DNA of 64,000 nucleotides. It comes from Geosiphon pyriformis uo1. Taxonomy: Eukaryota; Fungi; Glomeromycota. The stretch is from assembly GCA_016748015.1 (NCBI GenBank), contig JAAOMT010000468.1, positions 558,001-622,000 of the forward strand, written 5' to 3'. The notes below the pieces were generated by a model that did no database searches, had not been told where the DNA came from, and worked only from the letters and a program-made list of their open reading frames with translations. Below are positions 15,101 through 50,423 of the stretch, piece after piece. The first letter of the stretch is position 1. Every line of letters begins with the position of its first letter. Made by a program: the position numbers and the translations under genes.

Positions 15101-15241
15101 AATTTCTTTCTCTCGTTCTTCCACAAATCCTAAAAAAAGAGTCAAAAGTTTTTTTGGAAGAAGTTTTTTACCATTTAGTATGATAAATCCAAACCATTTC
15201 TGCTTGATTACGAGGCTGTTGTTGGCCCTAGTATTGCTGTC

Positions 15242-27650: not shown

Positions 27651-27656
27651 TAAAAG

Positions 27657-27674
27657 TAGTGCTCCCTGTGAGGT
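27657..27674 (+). promoter_or_regulatory. Primer-binding site of Gypsy-A (mutated TGG>TAG)
   Basis: TAGTGCTCCCTGTGAGGT 6 nt after the 5' LTR; differs from the Gypsy-B PBS only by transitions. Confidence 0.7.
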
Positions 27675-27759
27675 TGTCAAAATTCACTTACTCTCTCATT
27701 GTATAGGTGATTACTCATATCTGCCACAGCAATCAGAAAAACACTTTGCAGCACACAAC

Positions 27760-29214
27760 AGAAATGACCAAAGTTTCATTGAACTTAATCCTCTGCCCTC
27801 CTGCTTGATCTGCTTCCCCCTTGAAAAACAATCCAGTAGACAATTCTAAGACTGTTGGAACTGGTTCCTGAACGAGCATTCAGCTGAAACCTACACAGCT
27901 TATACAACCTATTACTTTGACCAAGCTTATTTTGAAAATGACTTTGAAGAAAGAAACAACAGTATCAATCAGCTCTTATATTCTGCAACTTTTGAACAAC
28001 AGCCCCCTGATTTCGAATATCTGAATCATCAAATCCACATTTGGATTGCTGTCCATCAAGCAACTAAAACTCCCTTTGAAACAGAAAAAGAAAGCTATCA
28101 AACTGCCCCTGTTTTTGATCTTTTATCAAGTGAATCAGACTCGTCTACACAAACAGTTACCCCTGAACCAATGGCTAATGACCCCATGCAAGCAAACATT
28201 CTGGCTGCCCTCCAAGGTATACAAACTGCTCTAGGGTGAAGAAACAACACCCCAATTCCATTATTTAGAGGTGATGCACAAGATCTAATTGAATAGTTAG
28301 ATGACTTTGAAAGAGCCGCTACAGCCAATCAATATAATGATGAGTACAAGTTCCTAATTGTCGGTGGCTATCTTCAAAAATCCCCTGCTACCTGGTTCTC
28401 ACAAGAAACAGATGCCAATGCCCAGCAAAGAATCATTAGATGGACACCAGCAAATGTGAGAAAAATCAACACTTCTTTCACTACCCGGTTTGAAAACAAG
28501 TTCAGAACCCCAATATTAATATCAAAATGGCATATGAAATTGGAAAAAAGAACCCAAGGTCCTGGTGAAGTTGTAACTGAATATGCCAAAGCAATCAGAA
28601 AGTTAATCAAATGAGTAGATACTGGAAGAAATTGGACAGAAAAGCAGAAAATTCACTCTTTTACAAAAGAATTGAGAATTGATCTATTGTATGCTCTTTG
28701 GCCCCTCCTGGCCCTGAAAGATAATCCCACCATAGATATGGCCATTGAATTAGCACAAAAAATTGAAAATAACCAAAGGATGCACTTGGGATCCACACTA
28801 CCAGTTTTTGCTCCTGTTCCTGTTATGGCTTCTGCCTTTCAAATGGCTGCTACTTCTTTTGCCACTCACACTCAAGATCCAAATGAACAGTTAATAAACA
28901 GACTCACAGCAAATCTTGCCTGGTTATTAGAACCCTTAGCCCAAGCAGTCAGAGAAAATCAGCAACCACAAAGACCCAGATTTGAACCACGCTTCAATCA
29001 GCCCCAGCAACCACCTTATCAAAGACAACAAAATCGTGGCCCACCTGTATGCTATCACTGTGGATTAACTGGACACTTTTCAAGAGATTGCAACAATCCT
29101 CCTCTGCCTCCACCAGTTCCCAAAAACAATGATGCTCAGAACAACAGGATCAACAACAACAATGTGCCCAACCAAAGACCCAATCATGCCAACATCAATT
29201 TCTTTGGAGAGGAT
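27760..29214 (+). pseudogene. Gypsy-A gag (capsid plus CCHC nucleocapsid) with in-frame stops
   Basis: QGPGEVVTEYAK capsid-type motif, Q/P-rich linker, CYHCGLTGHFSRDC knuckle. Start approximate. Confidence 0.85.
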
Positions 29215-29465
29215 NNNNNNNNNNNNNNNNNNNNNNNNNNNNNNNNNNNNNNNNNNNNNNNNNNNNNNNNNNNNNNNNNNNNNNNNNNNNNNNNNNNNNN
29301 NNNNNNNNNNNNNNNNNNNNNNNNNNNNNNNNNNNNNNNNNNNNNNNNNNNNNNNNNNNNNNNNNNNNNNNNNNNNNNNNNNNNNNNNNNNNNNNNNNNN
29401 NNNNNNNNNNNNNNNNNNNNNNNNNNNNNNNNNNNNNNNNNNNNNNNNNNNNNNNNNNNNNNNNN
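29215..29465. other. Assembly gap (251 N) covering the gag-protease junction
   Basis: Run of N. Confidence 1.
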
Positions 29466-32400
29466 TGGATCATCTGTTAGTGTTATTGCCAAACACTTTC
29501 TTAAAGCAATTGGCAGAAAAATTGATGAACCATCCACATGACCAATGACCAATGTGCATGGTGATAAGAAGAAAGGGCTTGGCATAGCCAAAGCTATTCC
29601 TGTCTGCATCAATGACATTAGCATTGAAACTGATATGGAAGTGTCTGAAGCAAAAGAATACACCATTATTGTTGGCAATGAATGGCTCAAGAAAGCAAAG
29701 GCTTTGCTTGATTATGAACTCTGTGAACTAACCATCAGATGTGATAAAAAACCCATTGTGGTTAAGTGTCACCATTGGACAACTCCCCCAGTACCCAAGC
29801 AGAGCCCAGAAGAAAATGAATCAGATGAATCAGATAATGAAGAAAGTGAGGAAGAAAAAAAACAAGAAAAACAAGAAAAAACTGCTGAACTCGCTTATAC
29901 CATCTTCACTAGCAATGGCAAACCACTGAATAATGTCAAGGCAGATAAAAAAGGAATTATTGTCAATGGCAAGCTGATCTGCTGGTCTTATTATGGCATG
30001 CTCAGAAGAACCTTTGACAGAAAGCCAGGCAAAAAAGCCAAATACAGTTATTGGTAGCATGGTCCTTGTGCTCGGTGCTGGTGCGACAAACCATTGTATT
30101 CTCCTAGCAATGAATGCATGTTCTGCCTGATCTATTACAAAGATTGGGAACCAATCAGCTTGATACCCCAAGAGGAAATAAAAGAAGTCCAAAAGTCCTT
30201 TGAAAACGAACCACCTGAAATCCAATCACTGGTTGTAGAACAAAGAGAACCCTCTTCAGAAGAAAGAAAAGTAGACATTGAAAACCTGCTGGCTAGAAAC
30301 AGCCCAGTTATCTTAAAAGAAGGTGAACCTCCTGGATGTACACATGTGATACAACACACTATCATCACCAGAGAAACTCGCCCCATCCATTTGAAGTCCT
30401 ATCAATCCAACCGGCACAATGATGAGTTTATCAAAAAGGAAATAACCCGAATAAAAACTCTGGGATTCATACAGGAAACCAAAAGTAAATGGGCATTCCC
30501 AGTTGTAGTGGTATCCAAGAAAGGAGGAACCCTACGCTTTTGTGTTGACTATCACCAATTAAATGCTATTACTGAAAGAGACATGTATTCACTTCCCAAG
30601 ATTGATGCAATGCTAGACCAATTCCATGGTACCGCTTTCTTCTCAACTATTGACTTAACTGCTGGATTCTGGCAAGTAGAGATGGATCCAGAAAGCAGAA
30701 AGAAAACTGCCTTCATTACCAAGTATGGTACTTATGAATTCACAGTCATGTTTTTTGGTCTCACAAATGCTCCTCCCACCTTTCAATGCTTAATGGACAA
30801 AGTATTTGAATCAGTAAAAAAAAACTTTGTTCTAGTCTATTTGGACGACATAATGGTATACTCAAAAACCTGGGATGAACACCTTGAACATTTGCAAAAG
30901 GTTTTTGACCTCCTTAGAAATGCTGGTCTCAAGATCAATCCAATCAAATCATTCTTTGGACGTCAATCCACCCAGTTCCTTGGCCATCTTATTACAAAAG
31001 ATGGAATCTTTCCTGATCCAGCCAAAATTGAAAAAATTCAAAACATTAGACAACCAATAAATGTTCATGAACTACACTCTTTTCTTGGTTTGGCCTCTTA
31101 TTATCGCAAATTTGTCAAGGATTTCTCCAAAATCGCTGCTCCTCTCAATCAGCTACTTAGGAAAAACATCAACAAAAAGCATTTGAAATTCTGAAAGAAA
31201 AACTGGTTACAGAACTCATCCTCATGCAACCTAATTTGGATTGACCTTTTATCCTCCACACTGATGCATCTGGCTATGGACTTGGTACTGTTTTTTCCCA
31301 AAAAGATAAAGATAACAGAGAACACGCCATAGCATATGCCAGTAGAACTCTCACACCAGCAGAAAGAAACTACTCAGTTACTGAGCAGGAATGCTTAGCA
31401 GTAGTTTGGGCTACCAGCTACTGGGACAAATATCTTAAGGGTGTGAAATTTTTGGTGATAACAGATCACCAAGCTTTGGTTTGACTATGCAACAAAAAAA
31501 ACCTGGAACATAAACGGATAACTCGCTGAATACTCCACTTGGACGAATTCGACTATGACATTCAACACTGTAAAGGAGCTAATCATCAAAACGCCGATGC
31601 TCTCTCCAGACTTACCATCCAATGATAGTAAAACCCTCTCAAACCAAACCAACTTAATTATTTGTAACTTCCCCCACAAACAAACATGATAATGGACTTG
31701 GATAACTACTCTGCTTTAATGAAATTTTTGGGTAAAAGACAATACCCACCAAACTATACTCAACAGCAAAGAGAATATTTGCGCAAACAATCAAATTTCT
31801 ATTTGATTCGCCAGAACCAGTTATATAAAAAAAATAGAAAAGATCCTGACCACCCCCAGAGAGTCATTAGATTTAAAGAAAGAGAAATTGTGATCTACAA
31901 TATGCACACTGATCCATTAGCTGGACACTTTGGAAAAACAAAAACAATTCAGAAAACTTTAGCTCGCTATTATTGGCCTACCTTGGGAAAAGACATTGCT
32001 AAATACATCAAAACCTGTGATACTTGCCAAAAAAGAGGAAAACCCAATCACAAGGAAGATATCCATCCAATCTCTGTTGGTCAACCATTTGATAGAATTG
32101 GTATAGATGTTGTTGGATCTTTAACAGTAACTCCTGATGGCAACAGATACATTATCACAGCTACCGACTATCTTACAAAGTGGGTAGAAGCAAGAGCCAC
32201 CCCAGATCAAACAGCAGTCTCAATTGCCAATTTCATTTATGAAAATATTATCTGTTGCCACGGCTGCTCCAAAGAACTTTTATCTGATAGAGGAAAAGCT
32301 TTTCTCAGTACACTGGTTGAAGAACTTTGCAGAAAAATGAGAATACGTCATAAACTCTCTTTTCCTTATTACCCCCAAACAAATGGCCTAGTGGAACGTT

Positions 32401-32999
32401 TTAATAGAACACTATGTAAAACCCTAGCCAAAACTAGTGAAGAAACCAACCTATGGGACAAAGTATTGCCTTCAGCTTTGTTTGCTTACAGAACTGTGAA
32501 TCATGACATAACAAATTATGAACCCTTTTATCTGCTCTATGGACAAATAGCAACTCTACCAATAGAAACAAATATAGAAACAATACCTTTTGAAGAAATA
32601 ACAATAGGAGATTACAAAGACATTTTGCAAAGAAGACTTGGTACCATTCTTGATTCATTAGTAGAAGCACAGATAATTGTCTTTGAAAAGATAAAACAGT
32701 TCCAAGAAAAGCTCAAAAAAAAAAAGACCTATAAAACACTTTTCTTAAGTGTTGGTGACTTAGTTTTGGAATACTGTTCAGACAGAGACAATGTCTATGG
32801 TGATAAATTCTCTAGCTGGTAGAAAGGACCCTTTTTAGTCAACAAAGTTTTGAACAATGGTTCTTATATCTTACAAGATCAATATGGAACAATATTCAGT
32901 GATTGCTCTGTTCATGGCACACGACTCAAGAAATATCACAAACGACCTGATTGGTTACCTGTTGTGGTAATACCGACCCAAATGATCAGCAAAAATTAG
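29466..32999 (+). pseudogene. Gypsy-A pol: protease, RT, RNase H, integrase with GPF motif, no chromodomain
   Basis: GSSVSVI / IVGNEWL (PR); LRFCVDY, IDLTAGFWQ, VYLDD (RT); HTDASG, AYASR, ITDHQAL (RH); H..GH..CDTC, IGIDV, LSDRG, NGLVERFN, KGPF (IN). Confidence 0.94.
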
Positions 33000-33046
33000 A
33001 TATAAATAAATGCATCATTCCCAAAACAGAGGTATCTTCAATCGAC

Positions 33047-33616
33047 ATGAACAATTATTTCTTGGATCAAAACATTCAAAACGCTTTTTATACTCTCCAT
33101 GAGTACTGGATCAAGAACTATCCAAATGCTACTCTGACTATTGAAAAACAAACCACTATAACAGACAACAGTGAAACTTACACTGTTATTAGACCAAAGA
33201 AAACAACTACCAGAAGAGAAAGAATTGGTGGCAAAATGGATAAATACCTGCTGGAAAGCATAACAGCAGCAATACTTTTACCTTCCAGCACAATTGGAAA
33301 AACAATACAAGAAATCTTGTCCATAGACAAAAACTTGTCATATGGAAGACAATTAGAACTCTATGGTCGTCTTGGTGAAATCATAGAAGACATGAAGCTC
33401 ATGAAGAAAACAACTTTAGAGATACAAGTGGAAATTTTGGGCATTATACGATTGGATGTCCCAAGAGTTTTGACCATTGCTAAAAGAGCCAAAACTCTTA
33501 TACAAAGATTTGGTCTCTTGGATACAAAGCTTATTTCGCCTCAAGTACTATATACTCTATCCACAAAAGACTTCAACAAACTAGTTAGTTTTGAGTTAGA
33601 CAAACCCTTCACATAG
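33047..33616 (+). CDS. Gypsy-A ORF3, unknown 189-aa protein at the env position (no evident TM or signal peptide)
   Basis: Uninterrupted frame from ATG 33047 to TAG 33616 between the integrase stop and the PPT; resembles Gypsy-B ORF3. Confidence 0.7.
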   Translation: MNNYFLDQNIQNAFYTLHEYWIKNYPNATLTIEKQTTITDNSETYTVIRPKKTTTRRERIGGKMDKYLLESITAAILLPSSTIGKTIQEILSIDKNLSYGRQLELYGRLGEIIEDMKLMKKTTLEIQVEILGIIRLDVPRVLTIAKRAKTLIQRFGLLDTKLISPQVLYTLSTKDFNKLVSFELDKPFT

Positions 33617-33671
33617 ACTATTCCATAAATAGTTTGATTTCGCCGGAGCTCAATCTCTTTGGAGAGGATGA

Positions 33672-34409
33672 TGTTATGGTTGAAACACATAGTTTTTATT
33701 AATTATCATATGTATTAGCCACTGATGTCATATAATTAGCCACCCTATTTTTAGATAGTGATTGTTAATCTGATCAATGACCTGACCGTTGACCTGATTA
33801 TTAACCTGATCATTGACCTGATCAATGATCTGATCATTAACCTGATCATTGACCTGATCATTGACCTGATCATTGATCTGGTCATTGACCACTTTAGATA
33901 GCTATATAAGCGATGATTCCCTTAGCTGTAGAAAGACATGATCAAAGTAACAAAATAAACAATATTAATTACTTCCTTTCATAATTGCTTATTCCCCTTT
34001 TCTTATCTTCAAGTATCTACTTGTTGGCATTCACATACCTTATCTTTTTCCCTTCTTAATTTGTATTTGTTAAAATTAGCCTGAGAAGCAATTGGCTTGC
34101 TCTTGTAATTCATTGAATAAAGAAACGATTGAAAAGCACAATAATACCTGTTATTGATTCTAAGAATCGCCGAGTTGAGGCATAGAATAATAGCAGCGGT
34201 GTTATTTTGTTGACAATCACGGACTATCCCTCTATCTTCAGATTTAAGAAAAGATTAGCGACTGTGATTTTTATGAGACTGATTATGTACATTGAATTCC
34301 TACTTATTTAATTCACTCTCTTATTGTAATTTCTTCTTTGTTTATTTCCATCACCATACAATACTGTTCTCCCTTGCTATCCGTTAGCTTATTACTCCAA
34401 CTCGTAACA
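33672..34409 (+). repeat. Gypsy-A 3' LTR (738 bp), preceded by PPT GGAGAGGATGA (33661-33671)
   Basis: Direct repeat of 26925-27650, longer by exactly one 12-bp unit. Confidence 0.95.
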
Positions 34410-34598
34410 ATATATTGGTTACTTTGGTTATTATATTGTTTAATATCTTTTTTGCTTTATATAATAAATTGAAAAACATAATTAAAACTGTTCAAAATGA
34501 GAGCTTTGTTTTTAATAAAGCTTTAAATAAAATAAATCATAATATTATTAAAATTAAATTAAAATATAATATTATTAATAAAGATATATATATATATA

Positions 34599-37500
34599 TT
34601 TTTTTTTAAAACTGTTTAATAAGTAAAGCCCAACTACTATCTAGTACATAGAGCCAGACTAAGTAACTCAAACTAAATGTGACTCATGCACTTTCTACAT
34701 GTGGCTAGTCACTCAGACCAGACAAGGCAACACTATACACTAACATAAACACAAGAACTACCATTCAAACCCGAAAAAAAAAGGCAAGGTCTGCAATGGC
34801 CGAAACTGATAGCAAAAGATTCAGTGATGCCAAACAACTTAACTACACTATCAGAAAGCACAAAAGACATATCACATAATAGACCCAACACCAAGCTATT
34901 GTTACCGACCAAGCCAGCTCTCTTCATGTCTGATCTAAACTTAGATCTAACTAGCCACACCCTAGAATGATGCAACTCAACCAAGAACCTTACAAAATCA
35001 ATAACTATACAAGAAGCTTTCTTAATATCATCGAAAACACCAGCTGCTTCAGCACACCAACTCTTCATCACAAATTTTTTACATAAAACCGAATATCTGC
35101 CAACATCCAAAAGGCAAAAATTAAGAACCTAAAGAACAAAAGAAGAAAACAGGTCACAAATGTTAACCAGAGAAACCCAATGTGTGGAAGCCTCCAATAG
35201 AATCTCCTTATGAGTGTGAGCATCTTGTAAACAAGAAAAAACATGATCAGGCAACTCCACCTCCCCACACAACAAGCATTGAACACCCAGATAACATTTA
35301 TCATACAATCTTTTCTTGACTTCTACTGGCAACCTCCTATGCAAAGTCTTTATCAAATACATATGAAGATCTGCTAATTTTTGGCTGGTAAACTCAGCAA
35401 GCATGTGTGAGTCAGGATGCCAGACTCTCACAGAAACAACCCAATCAAAATCCCCCAACATGTCAACAGAGACCACATCATGGCCCAGACCAGCTTCCCA
35501 ACGAACATGACAAACAGACCTAAATAAATCCCTGACAAAGTAATGAGCATTGCCTGAGACCATAGTGTCTTTAGCCACCAAAAAATGTTCACAGACCCTC
35601 ACCAGTAAAACATAAGAAAAGCCAGCAGCCTTATCTGCAAATCTGTCAGCTTTTACATTACCAAGATTACCAGCATGGCCCCTGATTTTGGTCTAACTTA
35701 CACTAAGATCCTTATCTCTAATCAAATTAAAAACATGTCTATGTTCGACCCAACAACAGTTGTAGAAATCCAGAATCTTAGATAACAACTCAGAGACACA
35801 TGCATCAATAGTAGCTTGACTGTTGAGAAACAAAAGCATTGAACAAGAGAATGGAACACATTCCAAAGTGAGAGTGACAGCCTACAACTCAGCCATAGTA
35901 GAAAATAAGAGGCCACAAATCCTAACACCAATACTCAAATCCAAAGCCGAGAAATATGCAGTGGCACCACTCAACACATCAGCAGAACCAGCACCCATCA
36001 ATGACCCATCCATGTAAACCTCAAAACAGCCAGACCAGACCCCAAGCAAACTATCCCTCACAGAGGAAAACACATCAGACTTCAAAATGTTCAAACCACA
36101 AGAATAAGCAGTACCAGAAGAGCCAGAAAAGAAGAAACTCTTATTCAGCAAATACTTAAAAGCAGCCACAAACTAAAGAGACACTGAGCCCCATGGATCT
36201 AACTGTTTCCAATGACGAAAAGTCTTCCAATCCAACAGAACATTTTTTTTATTGAGGATTCAATCTCCAAAAGCAATACTATAACGTTTAAGAGACCAAA
36301 CAGAATCAAAGTACAAAGACTTCCCAAGAATCAAAGACATCGGAAAATGACCAGGATGATGAAAAGCATTAGGGAGGTTGTTCACCAAAGAGAGATCATT
36401 GTCCAAAAAAATCTTCACTACACCCGCCAAAAAATTGTTCACCAGGCTAATATGCAGCTTGACAGGAGCTTGAAGAAGATTCAAGGAAGCCCACCCCTGA
36501 ATTTGCAAGTCCAGACACCTATGTTCAAACAAGTGACCAAGAATGTCAGGGGCATTAGAAAAAAAAATCAAAAAGGCCACTTTTGCCTCAGATTGTACTT
36601 GCTTAAAAGACTTCAAGCCATATAGAAAGGGGTGAAGCAGAGCAGCATTAGAGAAATCATGGGGTAGATGTGCCTTGGACTTGAAGCCCTTCTTAATCAA
36701 AATGTCCCACTTGTGGCAGACACCAGATAAAACAAAACTGAACTGTGTTTGGTAACTAACAATGGGCTGTAAAATAGCCAAGACCAAATAAGAAAATTGC
36801 TTATCCGTAATTGCTTTTCTTAGCACTGTGTAGACAAAAAAACAAACATCTAAGTGAGTCTTGGCCAAACTCGATTTGGACAATCCTTTAGTTGATAAAA
36901 AAATACCCAAATATCTGTAAGCTTCACCCTTCTTGGCGATAGAGATCGGCTGACCACTTATACTTAAAAAAGCAAACCTAACACTCTAATTAATTGATAT
37001 AGCCACCATTTTTTTATTGTTTATAGAGATGTTGTTAATAAAGAAGAAATCACTAACAATATTCAAAGCATACTGCATGGAAGATTGGCAATCCCCAACC
37101 CAAATTGTATCATTCACAAAAGCACCAGCAGCAAAGAATGAAGACATTCCACCACTATTCTTGATCCTGCCAGTTTTTGCCACAAACTTTGTATCAATAT
37201 GATATCCACACAAATGTTCATGTCTTTTAATTTCACACAAGAGTGGGTCATAGAAGATATGCCAAAGAAGAGATGAAAAAACCTCATCCTGATCAAGGCC
37301 ATCATGTATCCTGTAACTATTTAAGAGACCAAAATCAGTCATTACCCTATTAACTCTGTTCTTATGAATCCCACCAAAAAATTCAACAAATCTGTCACAC
37401 ATCTTGATATGACGCAGACTAGCCCTTAAGTGGTGCCAACCAACAGAATCATACACCTTGTGCATATCCTACAACATCAACCAAAGTTCCTTATTTTTTT

Positions 37501-39780
37501 CAAGAGCATCCTCCACCACCGATCCAATAGCAAACACAGGAGATTGAGTAGAAGTACTCTTCAGCACTGAGAAATTGTTACCACAGAGAACATTAAACTT
37601 GCTGCACACAAACAAAATCCTGTCTGAAAGAATTTTGGAGAGAATTTTTCTGGCTATTTTGATTAAGGCAATAGGGCAAGTATTTGTTAAAACTCTATTC
37701 CAATTATAAGGTTTCGGAATCATTGAGACCTAGGCTCTCTTTCACAAAGCAGGCACAGAACCAACAGACAGACACACATTCAACAACACCAAGAGGCATT
37801 CCATCACCTTCTCACCACCATGCTTCCAAAGTTTGTTAGTGATGTCAGACAACCCAGCAGCTTTATCATTAGCAACTCACTTAAACTAACAGCATCCATA
37901 ATACTGAAAAAAGCGTCATTTCTGACATAGGCCAAAGAGGCATATTAACAGACCCAAAGATCAGGCAGCACTAAAGACACTATCTGCTTCCTTATCCAAC
38001 CCTCCATAATCCTGTCAATTTTCAATTTCACCTCCTCAGGCTCCAAAACAAGCTCATTATCAACCACTAAATGATCCAACACTATCTTCTGAAATGGCTG
38101 ACCTAAAACACTCCTGATTATGCTGCTCTTGTCAGAGCAAAACTTTTCCATGTAATTCTCAATAGCCTTCCTGATAACAGTCTCTTGCACCAATTTCGAT
38201 TCATACATCTTGGATTTCCTGTACTCTCTTCTGATAACTAATAAAAACTTAAGAACATCGGCTCTTCCCTGACCAGAATCAATCATGTCTACCAACACAA
38301 AAGCCTTATCAGCATCCAATATAGACTATTTTCTCACCAGACGGTCAAAATCAGAGGTATCAGTTGAGCCAAATTTTTTGACAATTTTGACAATCAGCAA
38401 CTCCAAACCCAGAAATTTAGAAGATTATTTATTTTTTGAACAATGAAACTCACTAAACCAGTGTCAGAAAAATGTCACATTTGCAGAATCCATCAAAACC
38501 TTTTCCAACAGAGACCACATAACATCCAAATCACAATCAGCAGCAGTAGCATGAAAACTATCCATAACATCTAAAACTGCAGTAGAAGAGCAGTCTCTAA
38601 AATGAGACCATTTAGTTTCATCCATATCCTTGATATTAAACTTCCAACAATCCTTGTTAGCATGCTTATGCAAACTATTCAAATGAACATCCAAAAGCCC
38701 ACCCAATCTGATTGAAACCATAACAGCACTGTGATCAGTGTTGAAGAAGCCTAAGACAGAGCTCACCCCATGGCTAGCAACAGCAGAAGCTAAATTCTCA
38801 CTAACAAAAATGAAATCAATAGTTTTTTTAACCCTTCTAGAATTACCCCATGTAGAAGCTCCAACTAAAGGATGTCCAGTGAACAAATTGACCAAACCCA
38901 AACTTGAGCAGAACTTGAAGCTTGCACTCCTCCCAGATCCATTTTCATTGAAGTTTCCACCCAGAATGACAAAAGTGCTAGAGTTAGCAGCCTTAGCAAT
39001 GAGAGAGTTAACCACAGAAGCCTAACCAAAACAGACACCAGGAGAGGCACCAGCATACAAACCAACAACAGAAACCGAAAGCTTGTTTTTGAACAAAAGC
39101 TGCATCACAATGATCTGGCCAAGCACCTCCTCAATCTTAGAAACATGGCAAACCAAAGAATTGTTCATGATAATGACAACACCAGTGCCAAGAAAACCAA
39201 TCTCCAAACCAGAAATGAAGATACAAACACCATTATATTCACCCTTGATTCATGGACCAATAGAAGACTTCAACTTAGTCTCAGTAATAAAAGACACTAT
39301 ATTCCCAGAACTCACATGCCAGCAAACAATGTCTGCTTGTTTCGCAGGAACATTGATACTCCAAACATTGCACATAGCAAATTTCCAGACCAACTCAATC
39401 ATTGAGAGGGAGGAGGTACAACCGAACCTGAACCAGAACACAAGAGATCTAATTTCGCCAACACAAAACCAACTGACGCTTCCAAAGCTGACAACTTAGA
39501 TTCTAAACCACCAACTTTGGAGGTCAGAATCTTTGAACTACTTGGGCCAAGCTCAGCAACAGCGCCATCAAAAACCAGATGAGAAGAGTTGGAAGAGGGC
39601 AATGGAGTGTCCACAGCCATATTCAAACAAGAAATTGGAACATCAAATGCAGAAACCTCCAATGGAAAGACATGGAAAGAAGCTGCCAATGGCACCAATT
39701 CAACACCATTCAACCTCTTCAGAATGTTAGAGACTTGATCAGCCAAAAGCTCCAAAAAGTGTTCCAATACTGCCAAACGG
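34599..39780 (-). mobile_element. Second full-length LINE, 3' part (ORF1 end, ORF2, 3' UTR, polyA); interrupted by Gypsy-B
   Basis: Minus-strand APE (GGNFN, IDFIF, TDHSAV), RT (GLDQDEVFSSLLW, GAFVND), RNase H (YMDGS), CLLCGEVELPDHVFSC; polyT at 34599-34607. Confidence 0.93.
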
Positions 39781-40614
39781 TGTTACAGGTAATTATTTCT
39801 ACTGTTGATTAAATAACAAATCCATAACTTGGTGCTCAAAAGCTACTTCCATGGATGAGGTTCTGCAAGTGTTGTATCTGAAGGTTTTGATGAAGTCTTT
39901 TGTATAATGAACAGAGATTCAATAGTGTCAATAGTAGATGTATCTTTCCAAGAGTTTTCCCAATTTCTTTTTCAGCATGGTGGCCAAATTTAGTCTGGCA
40001 GTTGTGCCCTTCTGGTAAGCTATCCAATAATATATAAAATCCTACTCTTATTTATAGGTCTTTTACCAGGCTATCCTTGACATCAATAACTCAGTGCTTA
40101 ATCTTTTAATCAATTAGTATACAACAACAAAATCAAAAAAAAGAAAGAAAAGAAAATAAAGAAAATAAAAAATAAAGAAAATAGAGAAAATAAGCCAAGG
40201 CAATTTGATATGTTAGTATCTCATCAATAGCCATGATCAAGAGCTATTGTTCTAATGTAGTTAAGTATCAATTACTATCAACATGAAGTGTTGATAGTGG
40301 AGAGTGGATTGAGATATAAAATAATTATTTATTTGATGATTTTGTTTTTAGGCTAAAAATTCTGTGGTATTGATTCTGTCTTTTCTGTTTCTACCACTAC
40401 TGCTATATATACATATTTGAGATTTCCCAATTCCTCGATTTTTCATGATGGGAATCCTGGAATTCCTGGAATCCTGTGATTCCTTTGAGAGGAATTCTGG
40501 AATTCTGGAATTCTGCAATTCCTGAGAAGAATCCTGGAATTCCACATTTACTATACCTACTTCTGATTGGCTAATAATCATACTAATATATTTCCTATAT
40601 TTCTATGAGTAACA
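39781..40614 (-). repeat. Gypsy-B 3' LTR (834 bp) with 9-bp GGAATYCTG array; PPT at 40615-40630
   Basis: TGTTAC...GTAACA; minus-strand AAAAAGAGGGAATAA abuts the LTR. Confidence 0.95.
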
Positions 40615-40627
40615 TTATTCCCTCTTT

Positions 40628-41257
40628 TTAATATTGAGCTCCGTTAAAATCCAACTCATTTAATTCTCCCTCTTGAAGTATTTCCTGGATTTTGTTTTTG
40701 AGAATTACTTGTGTTATTTGGGTCTGTAATTCTTCAAATTGAGCATTAGTGATCTTTCCCAATTGATTACTGGTAACCATATCCATTGCTTTGTTGAGTA
40801 ATATTTCTGGTCTATCCTGAAATGCTGTGTGTATTCGGTATATGGCTCGGGCCTGTGTGGATAAGTTGTTCTTTCTCACAAAATGTTCTAATTGTTGTAG
40901 TATTCTTTTGTTGAATAATCACTTTGTTTTATCCATATATAGATTCTGGATATTTATGTGTTGTCCCAAATAAAAATAACAATAGTTTCGTGGAAATTGT
41001 TGTATCTACCAATTCCAAGTTTCTTTAGTCAACTCTTAATATAGTGACTTTTTTGTCAACTCTTTTATTGTTAATTTTACTTTCGCAATGATTTTGTCTA
41101 CCATATTTTCAGTTTTTTTCTGTGTTCTGGGTTGCAATGTCTTTCTAGTATTTTGATATTGAATGGTTTGTTGATTGATTGTAATCTCCATTTCCTGGTG
41201 TTGGATCAATTAAAAGAGTTGTTGTGCTAGTGAGTGAATGTTGTCTGTAATTTCCAT
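40628..41257 (-). pseudogene. Gypsy-B ORF3 (~209 codons, four in-frame stops), similar to Gypsy-A ORF3
   Basis: Reads MEITDNIHSLAQQLF*LIQ...MEITINQQTIQYQN...MVDK...YFYLGQHI...ARAIYRIHTAF...LGKITNAQFEEL in one frame. The stops (TAA, TAA, TAG, TGA) are explicable as C>T of CAA/CAG/CGA. Confidence 0.68.
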
Positions 41258-41309
41258 TTTTCTGATATTTCCTGTTATGTTAACTATGTTCTTATATATT
41301 CTTTTGTCA

Positions 41310-44184
41310 ATCAATTGGATGTGTTGTTGTCAATGATAATGATTGGTTCCAGATTTCGTGAAATCTCATTTGGTTGGACTAGTATTCTCTATACTCCTAA
41401 TTGTGGAATATTACTGGTGAATGATAATGCTATATGGTGGTACGGTTTCAGTTGATCTCTATGTGCTGCTTTGGTCAAGATTTTGTCATTCAATTTTAAT
41501 TTATAAGCTTCATTTTCTAGAATTTCTTCTATGTGAAATGGTCCATTTCATTTAGGGTCAAATTTTCCATTCCATTGTTTTTCCGCTTTGGTACAATGTA
41601 GTAGTACTTTGTCTCCAATCCTGAATTCAACTGGTTTATCTGGTAGTTGGTTATTATGTCTTTCTTTTTGTTTCTCTTGTAACTTTTGTATGTTATCAGC
41701 TGCTCTTTGTCATTTGTTTTCTAATGTTTCCATTAAGTCATATGTTCTTCTCAACAATGTATTTTTGAAATTCTCTTCTGTTATTGGTTCAGTTGGGTAT
41801 GTGCTGACTTCTATTTCCACTGATAGTGTTGCTGTTCTACCATATACTAATTCAAATGGTGTTGCTTGTGTAGTATCTTGTTTTATTGTCTAATAAGCAA
41901 ATAATACTGATGGTATCAACAAATCCCAATTGTTCTGGTTTTCTTGGCTGAGTTTAGCTATTGCTTTACACAATGTTCTGTTGAATTTTTCGACTAATCC
42001 ATTGGTTTGTGGATAATATGGTGATGATAGTGGTCTCTTAATTCCGAATCTTTGGCTCAATTCTGTTAATGTTTTGTTCACAAAATGAGTTCCTTGGTCT
42101 GATAATAATTCTTTTGGACATTCATGTCGACAGATCAAATCCTGATGAATAAATTCAGCAACAGATTCTGCATCCGCTTTTTGAATTGCTTTCGCCTCTG
42201 GCCATTTAGTGAGATAGTCCATGGCTACTGCTATATACCTGTTTCCTCCACTGGTGATTGTTAATGGTCCGACTAAATCAATTCCAACATGGTTGAATGG
42301 TTGTCCTACTTTGATTGGCCTTAATGGTTCACTGGGTTTTGTACCTCCTCTTTGCTGACAAGCATCACAATTTTGAACATATTGGATGATGTCTGGATAT
42401 ATTGATGGCCAATAGTATCTTTTTCTGGTTCTTTCTATGGTTGCTTCTTTGTGAAAATGTCCTGCTGTTGGATTTGAGTGCATGTTGAATAATATTGTCT
42501 TTTTTTCTGGTTCTGTAACTATTCTGGTTGGTTGCTCTGAATTTATTTTTATTTTTCCAATAAAGTATATTTTGGTGAGTGATAAAATATTTTAATTGTT
42601 GTTTGATATTCTTTTGTTCCGTTTGAGATAAATTCTCCTTGAACTGTTGAGTGTTTATATAATGTTAAAGTTGTTGATATTTTTGTATATTCATCTTTTG
42701 TTATATTTTTCGTTGGTATTGTTCTGGTTTTATTATATTTTTGTGTTAAAATGTTCTTAGATTTGTCTTATTTGCGACAAACTATCAGCATTTCCATTGT
42801 CTTTTCCTTTTTTGTAATATATAGTATAATTGTATGGTGCAAGTGCCATTTTCTATCTTGACTGTCTTCCATCCCCAAATTCTTGTTTTTGGAGTGATGT
42901 TAGTCCCTTGTAGTCTGTGTATACTTCAAACTTCTGGCTCAAGTATTCTTTTCATTTCATGACTGTCCAGTATATTGCTAAGTGTTCTTGTTCCAGTGTT
43001 CCATAGTTCTTTTTGGCTGGTATTAAACCTCTGCTGGCATATGCTACTGAATGTTCTCTGCTGTCTGGTCTTCTCTGAGATAATACTGCTCCCAATGCTT
43101 GGCCAGATGCATCAGTGGTGATGATGAATGGTTTGCTGTAATCTGGATAAATCAGTACTGGAGCTTGAATGAGCTTTCTTTTCAAAATATCAAAAGCTTC
43201 TTGTTGACTTTCTGCTCATTCATATTTGGTATTCTTGGTTTGCAGATTATTAAGCAGTTAAGCTATCTTTGAAAAGTTCTTTATAAAGCGTCAATAATAG
43301 CTCACGAATCCCAAGAATGATTTCAATTCAGTCACATTGGTTGGTACTAGAAAGTTTTTTACTATCTCTATTTTCTTTGGATCCATTTTGATGCCGTCTT
43401 TGCTTACTATGTGTCCCAAGAATTTTAGCTCTGTCTTGCTAAAGAAGCACTTTGTTGCATTTAACTTTAGCCCTGTTCTTCTTAGTCTTTTAAACACTTG
43501 TTGAAGATGATGAAGATGATCATTAAATGTTTTTGAGAATACGTTGGTGTCATCCAAGTATACAACTACTGATTTCTACAATAAGCCAGTATAGACAATT
43601 TCCATTAGCCGTTGGAAAGTGGCTGGTGCGTTGGTTAAACCAAATGGCATTACTTCAAATTCGAAATTCCCTTCTCTCATGGTAAATGCCATCTTCTCTT
43701 TGTTGGCTGGATCCATGGCCACTTGTCAGTAACCACTATCTAAGTCTAATATTGAGAACCATTTGTTTCTGCCAAAAGCATCAAATAATTCCTGTATCCA
43801 TAAAGTTGGATAACTGTCTCCACAAGTTACACCATTAAGTTTTCTGTAATCCACACAAAATTGGATCTTTTTATTCTTCTTACAGATGAGTACTACTGGT
43901 GATAACTATGGGCTCATTAATGGCTGAATTAGCCTATTGTCAAGCATTTGGTTTATCTCTTGTCAAATAATCTCATGGCTGGCTGGTGGTACTCTGTATG
44001 CTCTTCGTTTAATTGGCATTGCATCTTCAGTCTTGATCTGATGCTGGATGATGTCAGTTCGGCCAAACTCATTTTCACTGGCAAAAATGTCATTGAACTG
44101 GTTGAGCAACATCTTAAGTTGTATATGTTGGAGTGGATCTAAGTTTTCCATGTTCATTTGTTCCAATTGTTTTGGTTGGAGCAA
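41310..44184 (-). pseudogene. Gypsy-B RT, RNase H, integrase
   Basis: FCVDYRKLN, MPFGLTNAPATFQ, VYLDD; TTDASG, AYASR; H..GH..CDAC, VGIDL, LSDQG, NGLVEKFN, NGPF. Confidence 0.93.
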
Positions 44185-44589
44185 ATAACATTCACTTCAT
44201 CTGTATATTGTTTGTGATATGATATCGACATATCCACAAAGTTGTGAAAAGTCTGGAATGGGGTTTGGTGGTTGATCCTTTATTTTAGTATTTAAGTATC
44301 CAATAATGGTTCTGGCTGGTATTTCTATGACATTTTTTGTATTGTTGTAGATGAGAATTTTGATGTGGCTGTAATCTTTGGCTGGTATGTGAAGATTGAT
44401 AAATCCAACTTCTCCTGATTCACAAAGACTGGCTTCTGCTTCAAAAATTTGTGCTTGGTCTTTTTCCTTCCTTTCTATTGCTAGCATGTACTGGTTATAT
44501 GGTGAAATGGAAATAGCTTGACCAGTTGAGATAATTTCTCTTTGGCCAACAATTTTTTCCTCCACCATATTAACTGGTACATCTATTCT

Positions 44590-44982
44590 GCCCGTTGATC
44601 CGAATCCCTGTATTCCTCTCGCTGTTATTCCTAATTCCTTCCTCTTTCCCACTGATACTAACTGAGCTACTCTAACCAGAGGCAGGAATATTGCCTGTGC
44701 TATCTTTTTGTTGGGCTCTATTATATAGGCCTTTTCTGAGTCATTTTGTAGCATAGCAATGATATTTCCTACATATCTTATGTCAATTATTCCTCCTCTT
44801 ATATTAATCCCTCTTTTCGCTAAACTACTCCTAAATGCTAATTGAACTATTGTTGTTGCCAAGATTTCTAGGGCTACTTTCAGATCAATGTGGGTGCATG
44901 AATGTGGTTCCAATTTGATAGATTCTTTTCCTGGATACCTTAGATCAAATCTTGCATCAGTATCATGTGCACATTCTGGCAT
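44590..44982 (-). pseudogene. Trimeric-type dUTPase domain in the Gypsy-B polyprotein between protease and RT
   Basis: All five motifs in order: DARFDL, RSSLAKRGI, GGIIDIRYVGNI, KIAQAIF, RGIQGFGSTG. Confidence 0.92.
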
Positions 44983-45223
44983 AATATCTTCTCCATTGTC
45001 ACTATACTATTTTAACTCTTGTTCCTTGGAAAGATCTGGTAGTGCAATGTATTGTTTATAGTTTAAATTGGAGTTTGAATTTGAGTTTGAATTGTCTTTA
45101 TTGTCATTGCCATTTTGAATGGAGCTGGAACCAGTGTTTTCATCGTTGTTATCAGAATCTGGATCACAATTGATCAGTGATTCTGATTCCGCTGCTGATT
45201 GGTTTTTTTTCTTCAGGAATCGT

Positions 45224-46216
45224 TGTTACTGGAGGTTTTTGGTCTCTTTTCTTAAATGTTAATAATATTAATTTGTTGTGAATTTACATTTTCAGGAAGT
45301 AGTTGAACCTCCAATAACTGAATTTATCTTCAAATTATCTCCTATAATTTGAACTGCTGGGCTTATAAGTAGAATAGCCAATTCCTTGCCAGTTACTTTA
45401 TGTAGTTACATTGTAGTAAACGTCAACTCTTTCCTAAGAATTGCTCGTCTGGAAGCTCACTAAAAATGTGTAGTTACTTTGCTGTAAAAGTCAACTCTTC
45501 TACAGGAATCTTGTCTGTAGGCTACCCTAATGATTATAATAAGAAAAATAAAAGAAAATAAAAAAAATGTAAAAGAAATAGAATTTTGTCAAAAGAAACG
45601 TTTTCTATCCAGGCCTGGAGTCACTAACAGTTTACTGAAATTGGTAGCTAATCAATTTCGAAATGTTAGTTGGTTTTTGGGGATTTTCTAAGGGCAATAA
45701 TTAAAGAATTTGGTTTTTCAAATTATTTGGTATTTATTTCTTTTTGTGTGTGTAGAAATGGTTTTAAGTAATAAATCTAAAGTAAGATATATTTTCCAGA
45801 AGAAAAAAAGCTCTTCTTTTATACAACTTGTTGTAGTACTAGTTTATGAACTTGCACTTTTTCTCTTTGCCCAAATTCCAGCAAACTAAAGATACATTTT
45901 GATAAACTACAAGTTATTTCGCTGAACTATTGATTAATTTGGGTGAACTATTCATAATTTTGGCGAATTTCTGTAAATTTTGGCAAATTTCTTATAAATT
46001 TTGGCAAATTTTTGAATGTTACAAAGTTCAGAGTATTGTGTAATTTGATCATCTTACTTTTTGTTATACTAATTAGATTATTTTACTTGAATCGTGATAT
46101 GTGATAATTGATTAAATAATAAATGATAATTTGAAATAATATTAATATACTAATGAATTATAGAAATTATAAGGGTAATTTCATGTTAATTAATAGCTAA
46201 AATTCTACTGGTAACA
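45224..46216 (-). mobile_element. Solo LTR, family C (993 bp), inserted in Gypsy-B pol
   Basis: TGTTAC...GTAACA; perfect TSD TCGT (45220-45223, 46217-46220). Confidence 0.93.
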
Positions 46217-46220
46217 TCGT

Positions 46221-49200
46221 GTAGATTATGTGTGGTGGTGGATTGTAAATGAGATTACAATCATCACAATATTCAAAGTCACTGGGAATTAAACAATGGC
46301 GACACAGTCTTGTATTTAACTATGCTAGCCATTGTTCTTGCTCTTCTCTAGTGGATGCCAAGTTTTGGTAGTGTTCATGGAACTCTTCTGGTTCCAGAAA
46401 ATTTATGACTGGTTCTGCATCCCAGTCAAGCTTGATGAATTCTGGTGGGTTGTTTTTAATTGTCCTGATTTCTTCTGGTAACGCGCCTTCAATTTTGGTA
46501 ATTGCCATCCACTATAATTCATTATCATCGTGTGGACAACTGTTTAATCGCTGTACAGCTCTTCTCCAGGTGGCTTCTATGAATGTTCCTTTCTTGACCC
46601 AGTTGCTAATGAGGATTGTGTATTGGCAGGATGTGTTGCACATTTCTTTTCTCCCCAGAATGTCATTCCACATTTCTTCATTGAAGAGAGTTTCTCCACA
46701 GACTATACATGGTGTATTATCTCATTTTCCCACTCATTTTGGTCTTCTAAAACGTTTAACACAGCATGCATGGCAATAGAACTTGGTTGCTGTCTGATAT
46801 TCTTCATCGTTACCACAGCATGCGCCCATTGACAACAATTTCTTGCCGCAATCAACGCATATCAGTTTGGGTCAGCGATAGATCAATGATTGTTGTTGAC
46901 CATAGGTGTATAAAATATAAGTGTTGTTGGCTTGAGTGTTTTTTTCCTTCTTCTCTTTCCTTTTTCTCTTTTCTTCTTTTTACTCCCAACTTGATAATTC
47001 TTCCTGTTCATTGTCAATCCATGTCAAATTGTTTGTTTCCCAGGTCAGTTCCTTTTTTTGCTTTCTCTTAGGGTTGTCGTTCCACGAGAGTATTGGTGGT
47101 AGTTTGTTGTGGTTGGCATTGGCCCAGAAAATTTGGTAAGCTTCTCAGGTAGGTTTCTCTTTTTTCTCCTCCAGTTTGATCAATAGTTTCTCTCTTGGAG
47201 GAGTCTTGAAATGGCCATACGTGGCCGGTACACATATGTGTTGGTCCTAATATATTAGCTGGAGTTCCTGGGTGTTCCAGTTTAATGTCATGTTAACTTT
47301 GGATAGCCAGTTATTACCAACAAGAGCTTGGTATTAAGTGGCTTCCATCACTAAAACTTAAATGGAAGTCACAATGTCATTGACTTCGAAAGAGAAGTCA
47401 TCGATTTCGCTGATTGGAGTTTTGGTCACTCCATTGGCTGTGATGATTCTGGTGTTGGCAGCTCAATCAACTCGGTGACCTAATTGATCCATGAGTTGTC
47501 GTGTGATGATGCTGCCTGCTGAACCACTGTTAAGGATCAATTTGATGGATTGTTTTTCGACTTTGGCATTAGTGTACATTGTGATGATTGGTTTGGTTTC
47601 AAGAGCAGCTCCACTAAATAATAGCATTGCAGTTGTTTCCTTAAATTTGAATGGGAATATAGCAGCCAAAGACTTGTCTTCGGTAATAGTAGCAGATGAG
47701 ATATTACTGGTGAGTGGTTGTTTTTGGGCAAATGCTAAGTTATTGGTTGAGATGTCTTTTGAGGTGACCAGGAGACTTAAATAGTTCTGGGAATTTGGGT
47801 TTTGGAGTTGACCAGTACCCAAATTCTGCTGGCATAATCCAGATGGTTGCTGTAAAGAACTGGGGATTGGTTAATAGACTACCATCGTCAATCTCCAGCT
47901 CTGTTGAGTTATTCTCAGTTTTTGGGTTCCGTTGGGTGGTAAGCTTTGGGGTGGTGTTTGGATTTGTTGAGGCTGATAGATTATTTGTGGCTCCGGTTGT
48001 TGATAAATTACTTGTGACTGCAGTTAATAGATTGGAGCTTGATACACCAGAGATTGATAGACTGATGACTGCATTACTGATAGATAAGTGGGTTGGTTTT
48101 GATTTGGGTATTGATTCGGAGTTTGGAACTGGTGATTGGAGTTTTGATATTGATTTCCCGATCATTGGTTATTTAAACGCTGATGACAGTCAATTTGGAT
48201 ATGTTTTTGTTTACCACAATAGTGGCAGATGTGCATTTCCTGTTGCCACTGTTGATTGGTTGATGAAGATGGACGTGGTTGATTTTGGGCATGATTAGAG
48301 TTTCCTTGATTATTGCATTGTTGTGGAGGCTGATAAATGGCATGATTGTCAGCTAAGTATCCTTCCAGTCTCTTATTAATTGATTCACTGAACTTCTCCA
48401 ATTTGGAATCCAATTCAGATGATCCGTTCATTACTAGATTAACAGCTTGGGTGTGGTTAGCCTCTGACTCAGTGGATTCAAAATCTCTGGCGTGTGTGAC
48501 TGCATCTTGAAGGATGCCTGAATGCAATAAACATATATGTTGCAAGATGCTGCTGCGCAGGCCATGAATAAACTGGTTGAGTATCTGTAGGGCTGTGAAA
48601 TAGTTGGCATCAATTGCTTGAATTTGGTGCAGGTTTTGATGGAAGCGTCCCAGGTAAGTGGTGACCACTTTAGTTTCTCCTTGTTTCATGGTGGTAAATG
48701 TATTGACTAGGCGATTGATGCTGTTATTGTTGCTGAAGTATCTTAGGAATTCCGCTTTAAAGGCATTGAAATCTTGTGATTTATTAACCAAGCTCTGATA
48801 CCATAAATTGGCGGTATCCTTGAGAAAGTAAGGAATGGCTTGTATTGCTCAGACATCATTCCATTCATTGGCTGTGATGGCCTTTTCAACATTATTCAGC
48901 CATACTTAAGTGTCATTCTCTTTGCCAGTAAAGTTGTCAAGTTTTGCGATTGGTGCGTAGGCCATTGGATCTAAGTTAGGGGGTTGTGGTGGCTGTTGAA
49001 GCAGTTGTTGTTGTACTGGTTGTTGGGGTGGTAGTTGAAGTGACTGTTGTATGAGTTCGGCTATGGGATTAATTGGCAGTTGATTGATGACAATTGCCAA
49101 AGATAAGTTTTGCTGATTAATTAATTCGGAGTTTGGATTGTTCTGCCTTTGATAATTCAGAGTTTCGATTTCCGAATTTTCTAGATTTAGATTTTACTGA

Positions 49201-49946: not shown

Positions 49947-49988
49947 TTTTGGATGGTGTTTGTTGGTGCTGGTTCTCTGTAGGATTAG

Positions 49989-50006
49989 ATCTCATAGAAA
50001 GCACCA
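49989..50006 (-). promoter_or_regulatory. Primer-binding site of Gypsy-B
   Basis: Minus strand TGGTGCTTTCTATGAGAT, 2 nt downstream of the 5' LTR. Confidence 0.8.
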
Positions 50007-50008
50007 AA

Positions 50009-50361: not shown

Positions 50362-50423
<62 letters not shown>

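Follow-up and report, generated by a model that had tools for sequence, protein, structure and literature searches.

Extra 3′ open reading frames (ORFs) of LTR retrotransposons have mostly been classed as env-like or as being of unknown origin. The closest described counterparts of the third ORF analyzed here, ORF3, come from several kinds of element. Foamy viruses carry the accessory genes tas and bet behind an internal promoter; these follow the last of the structural genes, lie ahead of the 3′ LTR, may extend into U3, and include a soluble product (PMC12789967). ORF3 resembles them in position, in its possible extension into U3, and in its predicted solubility. However, no sequence similarity between the two was shown, and the host of ORF3 is an env-less retrotransposon.

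Other systems share some of these features. The sense aORF-3S of plant and insect elements, which is env-like, is conserved in most copies of its family, where it lies downstream of pol and ahead of the 3′ LTR. It is described as TM-bearing and spliced (PMC7264820), whereas ORF3 is soluble and short, with a TATA box immediately preceding it. In the Oikopleura elements Tor3b and Tor4b, env is likewise a third ORF, driven by a promoter (Penv) that is located within pol or the intergenic spacer, but Tor Env is a membrane glycoprotein and ORF3 is not (PMC4402516). CERV, from the Gypsy-type element Cer1 of C. elegans, is a non-env accessory protein like ORF3; its mRNA is spliced, its function is the export of genomic RNA, and no homology to ORF3 was shown (PMC10309623). 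VANC, the anti-silencing protein of the VANDAL transposons, is also a TE-encoded accessory protein in a methylated genome, and VANDAL elements have family-specific tandem arrays in their noncoding regions (PMC5735166). Similar arrays occur in half of the LTRs of ORF3-bearing elements, but VANDALs are plant DNA transposons and homology of VANC to ORF3 was not shown.

Two host elements and their third reading frames

Both host elements lie in the window, the 64,000-nucleotide stretch of Geosiphon pyriformis DNA analyzed here. Element A (26925–34409, plus strand) is full length, with two LTRs (26925–27650 and 33672–34409, 92% identical), a 4-bp TSD (ATAT), and a decayed pol. Element B (39781–50903, minus strand) has LTRs at 50903–50009 and 40614–39781 (89–93% identical) and the TSD CTAT/CCGT; it sits in a LINE-like element and contains a nested repeat at 45223–46216. 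Each has two LTRs, a TSD, a PPT, gag, and RT-RH before integrase, and the closest RT match is Ty3. The PR-RT-RH-INT order is that of Ty3/Gypsy elements (Metaviridae), and B, with its dUTPase between PR and RT, resembles PosPlaTy3-5 (PMC2864245). A and B differ from Ty3/Gypsy elements in their stand-alone integrase ORF, the absence of a chromodomain, and the additional ORF3.

The integrase of A (31686–32999, plus strand) has an ATG of its own downstream of the RNase H stop, contains one internal stop, and terminates at 32997–32999. That of B (41311–42694, minus strand) is also a stand-alone ORF, decayed and with an SH3-like C-terminus. Neither matched a chromodomain. The original prediction held that A and B belong to unrelated Gypsy families. 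Their LTRs indeed give no blastn match to each other, but their integrases are identical at 126 of 280 positions (45%) and their RTs at 121 of 265 (46%). By this measure, A and B are two families within a single lineage.

Inside each full LTR element, ORF3 lies where it was predicted, past the integrase stop and ahead of the PPT. ORF3-A (33047–33702, plus strand) starts 47 nt past the integrase stop and was correctly located as a 189-aa frame ending at 33616. However, it is not intact, as had been claimed: it reads 189 aa because of a 1-nt frameshift near 33604–33610, and the tail frame runs on to 33702. The A-family form has 218 aa and crosses the PPT (33661–33671, plus strand), which lies within its reading frame, into the 3′ LTR. 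Among the matches listed, exactly 218 aa are found in 20 of 119 A-family copies, the longer C-terminal motif in 53, and the ending of the window copy in none. As a separate observation, and a hint only, P0247 and P0250–P0255, which are distantly related to A, have C-termini that resemble this PPT-spanning tail.

ORF3-B was re-found at 41257–40628 on the minus strand, starting 53 nt past the integrase stop and ending immediately 5′ of the PPT (40615–40629, minus strand). Its 209 codons include the four premature stops noted before, at codons 16, 74, 84, and 113; an intact 209-aa copy, P0122, is known. ORF3-A and ORF3-B are both dead copies, probably of a single accessory gene family of this Gypsy lineage.

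Probable homology and predicted structure of the ORF3 proteins

Direct comparison of ORF3-A with ORF3-B gave no significant result by blastp (E 0.29) or by Smith–Waterman alignment (score 32 against 34.0 ± 5.6 for shuffles, with 1279 of 2000 shuffles as high), and profile comparison with hhalign did not bear out the predicted similarity (E 0.22, 0.29, 0.11, and 0.16). As a pairwise alignment, the sequence blocks that had been matched by eye are thus no better than chance.

A third set of sequences, the short family, connects the two. Its profile matches the A family at E 7e-4 (score 30.0, null 12.7 ± 2.7, 0 of 45 shuffles) and the B family at E 8e-3 (score 23.6, null 13.2 ± 2.7, 0 of 45 shuffles). 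The A core matches L035 at E 1.3e-3. B matches L028 at E 7e-13, and its core matches L049 (E 1e-3), which in turn matches the short family (E 5e-10). The same three motifs are aligned in all of these indirect matches. Two of them, YGRLGEII/YFYLGQHI and LYTLSTKDFNKL/LGKITNAQFEEL, are the C-terminal blocks first seen by eye, recovered here independently as family motifs; the N-terminal blocks drew weak support (12 columns, E 0.012). Against an HMM built without the A and B families, B copies score at chance (104 and 179 of 300 shuffles as high), compared with 6 of 300 for the window copy of A and 0 of 300 for L028, so the link of B to the family depends on L028.

Since A and B each match the third family at the same motifs, we consider their homology highly probable, albeit transitive and moderate rather than direct. 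The non-significance of every direct test, and the behavior of B alone against the reduced HMM, would also fit two separate captures of unrelated genes at one position, with the motifs as convergent amphipathic helices. We find such a double capture very unlikely: on the same motifs, A and B families both outscore every shuffle against the third, L028 bridges B, and A and B agree in position, strand, size, and TATA box.

The ORF3 proteins have 140–230 aa and 0–3 Cys. By a simple hydropathy method, the Kyte–Doolittle 19-residue maximum is at most 1.53 in all 28, and no TM helix or signal peptide was found in any of them, including A and B, as originally noted. Pfam searches with 22 and 28 ORF3 proteins returned no family at cut-off, with env/fusion-protein and DNA-binding families likewise unmatched. 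PHROGs and PDB sequence searches yielded nothing at the curated cut-off, the ESM Atlas gave weak, unnamed matches alone, and a PDB profile search found only HP0242 chimeras (E 0.0025, not significant per domain) and uS13 (E 0.3). A likeness to the DUF1016_N/DUF3102 helix-turn-helix found no support: Pfam gave no match, and one protein with DUF3102 came up, with E 1.2, at rank 45.

The core model, from the short family, is all-helical with a pLDDT of 96. The A-family model is of low confidence (pLDDT 48) and has a matching helix order, although the two were predicted from alignments with zero sequences in common. Helices fall at motif-aligned offsets (A/short: 96–112/50–67, 134–150/83–97, 163–167/112–116, and 170–184/120–142). 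A and B appear to be long forms, in which an extra N-terminal alpha/beta domain of ~55–70 aa, seen in the low-confidence model, is added to the ~140-aa core. A fold search with the short-form model gave a best Z of 5.2 (rmsd 3.8 over 78 residues) and no Z ≥8 among 48,161 chains, which does not in itself prove a new fold; the low-confidence A model reached Z 6.1 (rmsd 3.4 over 59). Foldseek searches of PDB and BFVD with a threshold of E 0.001 found nothing.

These features bear on whether ORF3 is an env-like protein or a small fusogen for cell-to-cell spread. It does occupy the place of env, downstream of pol and ahead of the 3′ LTR, and Tor env is likewise expressed from an internal promoter (PMC4402516). 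However, the low hydropathy, few cysteines, and small size of all 28 proteins, together with the compact soluble helical fold predicted for the short form, have already largely refuted this idea, which we regard as having almost no chance of being correct. Sixteen conserved columns are at least half K/R versus eight acidic, and none of the conserved columns forms a Cys/His/Asp catalytic cluster. Not every member has a basic net charge: the pI is 5.4–6.1 in L028, L035, L049, P0247, and P0250. On balance, we predict that the ORF3 product binds nucleic acid.

Distribution, selection, and a candidate internal promoter

An integrase-motif scan of metagenomes provided 120 related elements. ORF3 is present in 27 of the 48 with enough 3′ sequence and absent in 16, and it is therefore dispensable for the lineage. 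An integrase tree made by a quick method (midpoint-rooted, five short rows dropped) suggests that ORF3 was lost in two groups. Neither a loci scan of viral and metagenome contigs with the A-family alignment nor a search of viral contigs with the integrase pattern found anything, and a search of sequencing runs listed no RNA run.

The ORF3 family is under purifying selection. In the metagenomic relatives, on which dN/dS was computed, the pair L018/L066 differs by 5 nonsynonymous and 34 synonymous changes (dN/dS 0.03), and the other 21 among the 22 top-ranked pairs, out of 231, have a dN of 0.40–0.66 against a dS of 1.2 or saturated. The proposed soluble, non-env accessory family is thus supported and wider than first seen. 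No description of it was found in the literature searched, although Repbase, Dfam, and GyDB may annotate such ORFs.

A TATA box (TATAAATA; 33001–33008, plus strand) lies 46 nt upstream of the ORF3-A ATG, and another (TATATAAG; 41291–41298, minus strand) lies 41 nt upstream of that of ORF3-B. Across 25 elements, which are related to one another and in which the signal was both noticed and tested, with ORF3 starts picked by eye from homology, TATAWAWR occurs at −100 to −20 of the ATG in 17, including A and B, against 2.07 expected. This excess points to an internal promoter rather than to expression from a spliced mRNA. In 14 of the 17 the motif falls at −35 to −63, and neighboring windows contain it in 5, 3, 0, and 0 of 25. 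TATA precedes the integrase ATG in 8 of 33 cases and is found at the integrase end in one of nine ORF3-less elements. The integrase and ORF3 range from overlapping to 1.1 kb apart, and the TATA box keeps close to the ATG throughout. The reverse strand also has a TATA in 7 of 25 elements, and the boxes of L055 and L072 sit in integrase codons. Overall, ORF3 is probably transcribed from its own TATA-box promoter.

Proposed function of ORF3

By analogy with foamy virus Tas or with VANC, ORF3 may be an activator or anti-silencer of its own LTR, a reading that we prefer tentatively. The promoter just past integrase would yield a short ORF3 mRNA ending in the 3′ LTR. The encoded protein, soluble and by prediction all-helical, would bind nucleic acid of its own element and raise or de-silence LTR transcription. 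Following the logic of Tas, the internal promoter would allow the regulator to be made before the LTR becomes active.

Should ORF3 bind DNA, a candidate target in A is the U3 tandem array (33765–33910, plus strand), in which TGACCTGATCA-type units precede the LTR TATA box; B has an array of GGAATTCCA-type units and an LTR TATA box at 40405–40545 (minus strand). Such arrays occur in 8 of 16 ORF3-plus and 0 of 9 ORF3-less LTRs (Mann–Whitney p 0.067), a weak contrast in that the 0.10 cut-off was set afterwards, the ORF3-less elements fall into two clades, and an array is missing from half of the ORF3-plus LTRs. Moreover, Tas acts on both promoters, whereas array 7-mers lie near the ORF3 promoter in one of nine elements, so that in eight of nine the LTR and ORF3 promoter have no array motif in common. 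An anti-silencer would be useful because the TEs of a related fungus carry heavy CG methylation (10.1101/2021.03.30.436303) and because nearly all differences within the window LTR pairs are transitions (46 of 46 and 55 of 58). The fullest version of this idea is an env-free fungal Gypsy lineage with complex-retrovirus regulation, in which an internal promoter drives an ancient small helical protein, its fold possibly undescribed, that binds the family-specific arrays of its own LTR and lifts methylation silencing. If true, fungal LTR retrotransposons would gain their first known sequence-specific transactivator or anti-silencer. In this full form the idea is doubtful.

Nucleic acid binding would also suit an RNA-binding regulator of the element's RNA, acting in its export in the manner of Rev or CERV, in its packaging, or on how the stand-alone integrase is translated. 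The modeled helical surface is basic, the separate integrase ORF needs special expression, the N-terminal domain of the low-confidence A model has a KH/KA1/ferredoxin-like beta-alpha-beta-beta order, and CERV offers a precedent (PMC10309623). A covarying RNA motif also lies upstream of the integrase ATG in 16 loci, and all eight typable ones carry ORF3. However, the motif is missing from ORF3-bearing A, B, L014, L017, L028, L041, and L049, its co-occurrence with ORF3 tracks one clade, and ORF3-less elements have a split integrase as well. We judge this role unlikely.

Less likely again is an RNA-silencing suppressor that binds siRNA/dsRNA or Argonaute, as viral VSRs do. TE loci of Rhizophagus give rise to small RNAs, and ORF3 is small, soluble, often basic, and by prediction separately expressed. 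Yet the sequence searches matched no known suppressor to ORF3, and the single measurable pair, at dN/dS 0.03, has no sign of an arms race.

Finally, ORF3 could act on the particle or on integration, as a capsid or integrase partner, a targeting factor, or a copy-number control. Ty1 p22 is a self-encoded control of the last kind. A small, presumably separately expressed protein adjoining integrase in elements without a chromodomain would fit, but ORF3 has no similarity to Gag or integrase domains. The original suggestion of a targeting factor replacing the chromodomain is weakened, as ORF3-less relatives lack it equally (0 of 14 integrase C-termini matched, five of them ORF3-less). We think a role of this kind very unlikely.

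For Geosiphon pyriformis, more than 230 annotated "hypothetical proteins" are copies of the ORF3 transposon gene rather than host genes. As a family, ORF3 is defined, soluble, and under selection; it has a confidently modeled core, members that are intact, and a promoter predicted from sequence, and its function is therefore directly testable. If it is Tas- or VANC-like, it would help explain the expansion of Gypsy elements in heavily methylated Geosiphon-type genomes and would be a source of a small sequence-specific anti-silencing protein.

Third ORFs of elements A and B

Both third ORFs sit after the integrase stop and ahead of the PPT of a complete LTR element, as originally predicted. Element A (26925-34409, forward strand) carries ORF3-A at 33047-33616 (189 aa), and element B (50903-39781, reverse strand) carries ORF3-B at 41257-40628 (209 codons, four stops). 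Their 4-bp TSDs, ATAT/ATAT at 26921-26924/34410-34413 and CTAT/CCGT flanking 39781-50903, are compatible with decayed NCGN targets. Between protease and RT, element B has a dUTPase domain (44197-45006, reverse strand), an arrangement also described in some basidiomycete elements (PMC2864245). An AT-rich repeat of ~1 kb, probably a non-autonomous DNA element, is inserted in its pol (45223-46216) and matches 11118-12072 and 23202-24068. The window also holds a LINE-like element (15179-21491, forward strand) that encodes an RRM ORF1, an endonuclease, RT and a C-terminal RNase H, and relatives of it at 387-2906 and 34700-39800.

The original prediction treated A and B as unrelated families. Their LTRs indeed do not match, but the integrases are 45% identical (126/280) and the RTs 46% (121/265), which indicates two families of one Gypsy lineage. 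Among solved structures, RT matches Ty3 best.

The window copies of ORF3 are dead. Nearly all differences within the LTR pairs are C>T/G>A, many in CpA and CpC besides CpG context; transitions account for 46/46 and 55/58 differences in the two pairs, a load that suggests methylation- or RIP-like mutation. ORF3-A had been called intact, a description that does not hold: it has a 1-nt frameshift near 33604-33610. A search with it gave 129 matches, and those listed comprise the window's own and 119 Geosiphon pyriformis hypothetical proteins. Among these 119 listed copies, 20 are exactly 218 aa, 53 have a tail that continues across the PPT and on into the LTR, and the window copy's ending is shared by none. 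All 118 matches to ORF3-B are from G. pyriformis.

The sense extra ORFs of plant elements are characterised as env-like (PMC7264820). An env-like ORF3 is extremely improbable here, since the highest 19-residue hydropathy is at most 1.53 in 28/28 ORF3 proteins, in keeping with the predicted lack of a TM helix, and no Pfam family matches at cut-off. The proteins contain 0-3 cysteines, and PHROGs gave weak, scattered matches alone.

Probable homology through a wider family

Compared directly, ORF3-A and ORF3-B are not significantly similar. Blastp gave an E of 0.29, the local score was 32 against 34.0±5.6 in shuffles (1279/2000 as high), and profile comparisons gave 0.22, 0.29 and 0.11 (cores alone, 0.16). 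The profile similarity expected by the original prediction is thus missing from the pair by itself.

The case for homology runs through third sequences. Four distant relatives of A (28-34% identity) came from an unfiltered HMMER search. A degenerate integrase motif, scanned against contigs from metagenomes, picked out at least 120 loci, roughly half the number estimated to exist there. Forty-eight of them extend 700 nt or more beyond integrase, and 27 of these 48 carry ORF3, as scored with HMMs that contain some of the scored sequences; in 16 the PPT directly follows integrase, and 5 fall in neither class. Most metagenomic ORF3s are a short form of ~140-160 aa (mutual identity 25-47%). Loci L028, L035, L041 and L049, assigned by separate comparisons, have long forms that share with A and B an additional N-terminal segment. 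The L028 ORF3 is homologous to B (E 7e-13), and its integrase is sister to that of B (SH-aLRT 93, quick tree).

Against the A family, the short-family profile scores 30.0 (E 7e-4; nulls 12.7±2.7, maximum 22.1), and against the B family, including L028, 23.6 (E 8e-3; nulls 13.2±2.7, maximum 22.5), each exceeding all 45 block-shuffled nulls. Further links join A to L035 (E 1.3e-3), B to L049 (E 1e-3), and L049 and L035 to the short form (E 5e-10 and 1.4e-4). Common to all are three motifs: Y/F-x-L/I-G, A-x-R-x-Y-x-L-F and T/S-x3-I-x-K-L-x3-E/D-F-x2-L. The last two sequence blocks originally proposed as shared correspond to the first and third of these. Leave-out HMMs gave weaker support. Without A, 7, 0, 0 and 2 of 300 shuffles scored as high as the A-side proteins P0001, P0005, P0247 and P0250; without B, 4, 17 and 0 did so for B copies P0121 and P0122 and for L028; without both, the B copies were at chance level (104/300 and 179/300). 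The predicted models of the A family (pLDDT 48) and short form (pLDDT 96.4, pTM 0.90), from input alignments without any common sequence, have the same helix series at motif offsets. Overall, ORF3-A and ORF3-B are very probably homologous. That they are unrelated would fit the direct comparisons and the chance-level B copies, but is improbable given that each family beats 45/45 shuffles on the same three motifs.

In the window (31686, forward; 42694, reverse) and most loci, a stop follows RNase H and integrase then begins at an ATG of its own as a stand-alone ORF, unlike L041 and L049, where it is seemingly fused. A structured-RNA-like motif of ~40 nt, identified by sequence conservation and predicted pairs, lies a few nucleotides before this ATG (30 nt in L030) in 16 loci (L011, at 4454-4507, forward strand; L004, L019, L024, L030, L032, L044, L046, L055, L059, L062, L066, L070, L072, L077 and L001). 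This candidate reinitiation or IRES-like signal shows compensatory changes in 7/11 predicted pairs (13 sequences), has no Rfam match at gathering threshold in 10 loci and is absent from the window. In L011, L019, L044, L046 and L072, which also carry the motif, pol extends ~750-1000 nt beyond RNase H, upstream of integrase, and this extension contains an acidic stretch as well as a Cys/His-rich motif that is conserved. Gag starts with a conserved His/Cys-containing domain, C-x2-C-x-P then an F-W-x-W-F-like helix (window 27700-27950, forward strand; also L046, L011, L014, L034 and L079), in ORF3-plus and ORF3-less elements. L046 (before ORF3) and L059 have an extra antisense ORF of 150-190 aa, coiled-coil-looking, between integrase and ORF3 or LTR.

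Selection and expression of ORF3

The original prediction proposed dN/dS as a check. In metagenomic relatives L018 and L066 it is 0.03 (5 nonsynonymous, 34 synonymous changes), not near 1. The remaining 21 of the 22 closest pairs (231 in all) have dN 0.40-0.66 with dS 1.2 or saturated, and B versus L028 has dN 0.79 and dS 2.76, near saturation. ORF3 is a real gene under purifying selection. A quick, midpoint-rooted tree of 36 integrase rows (5 short ones left out) places the 7 ORF3-less rows among ORF3-plus ones and needs two changes to account for them, a pattern suggestive of ORF3 losses.

The integrase stop and ORF3 ATG range from overlapping to 1.1 kb apart, a variability at odds with a single fixed readthrough or frameshift. 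Of 25 elements, 17 have TATAWAWR 20-100 nt upstream of the ORF3 ATG, where dinucleotide shuffles give an expectation of 2.07. This signal was noticed in the same data before testing and in elements akin to each other; the count excludes near-duplicates L066 and L040, and L022 and L032, which have no clear start. Fourteen of these boxes lie at -35 to -63, and the window's are at 33001-33008 (forward, ORF3-A) and 41291-41298 (reverse, ORF3-B). Neighbouring intervals gave 5, 3, 0 and 0 of 25, the reverse strand 7/25, integrase ATGs 8/33 and the integrase end of ORF3-less elements 1/9. ORF3 thus probably has an internal promoter, predicted to give a short mRNA ending in the 3' LTR.

Possible roles of ORF3

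K/R accounts for half or more of the residues in 16 columns of the short-form alignment, grouped on helices 2, 4 and 7, versus 8 acidic columns, and no catalytic-looking residue cluster is seen. The pI is 9.1-9.4 for Geosiphon A and B proteins and 5.4-6.1 for several long forms. Family-specific tandem arrays occur in U3 of 8/16 ORF3-plus versus 0/9 ORF3-less LTRs (p 0.067, not independent), with array words near the ORF3 promoter in 1/9 elements, A only. Near the LTR 5' end, many loci, including L034, L011 and L053, have a GC[GA]CAGT motif, probably a host-factor site, whether or not they carry ORF3.

We tentatively propose, by analogy, that the ORF3 product would bind nucleic acid, then activate or de-silence its own element's LTR. 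VANC offers a model for anti-silencing with arrays (PMC5735166). TEs of Rhizophagus are described as heavily CG-methylated (10.1101/2021.03.30.436303), and another study reports striking LTR expansion in Geosiphonaceae (PMC11952901). A role as an RNA regulator, for which CERV would be the model through RNA export (PMC10309623), is unlikely, and RNAi suppression is quite doubtful. The original prediction also raised a targeting factor in elements lacking a chromodomain. A chromodomain is present in 0/14 integrase C-termini, but these include ORF3-less ones, so ORF3 is not simply a chromodomain substitute. A particle or integration factor is a poor prospect.

The nearest published architecture is the foamy virus internal promoter making Tas (PMC12789967). 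Tor env is likewise expressed from an internal promoter, though the protein it encodes is a membrane protein (PMC4402516). Our literature searches gave no account of this ORF3 family. Extra 3' ORFs in LTR elements are already known; what is new, judged from sequence, is a soluble, selected, lineage-wide ORF3 in fungal Gypsy elements, likely with its own predicted promoter.
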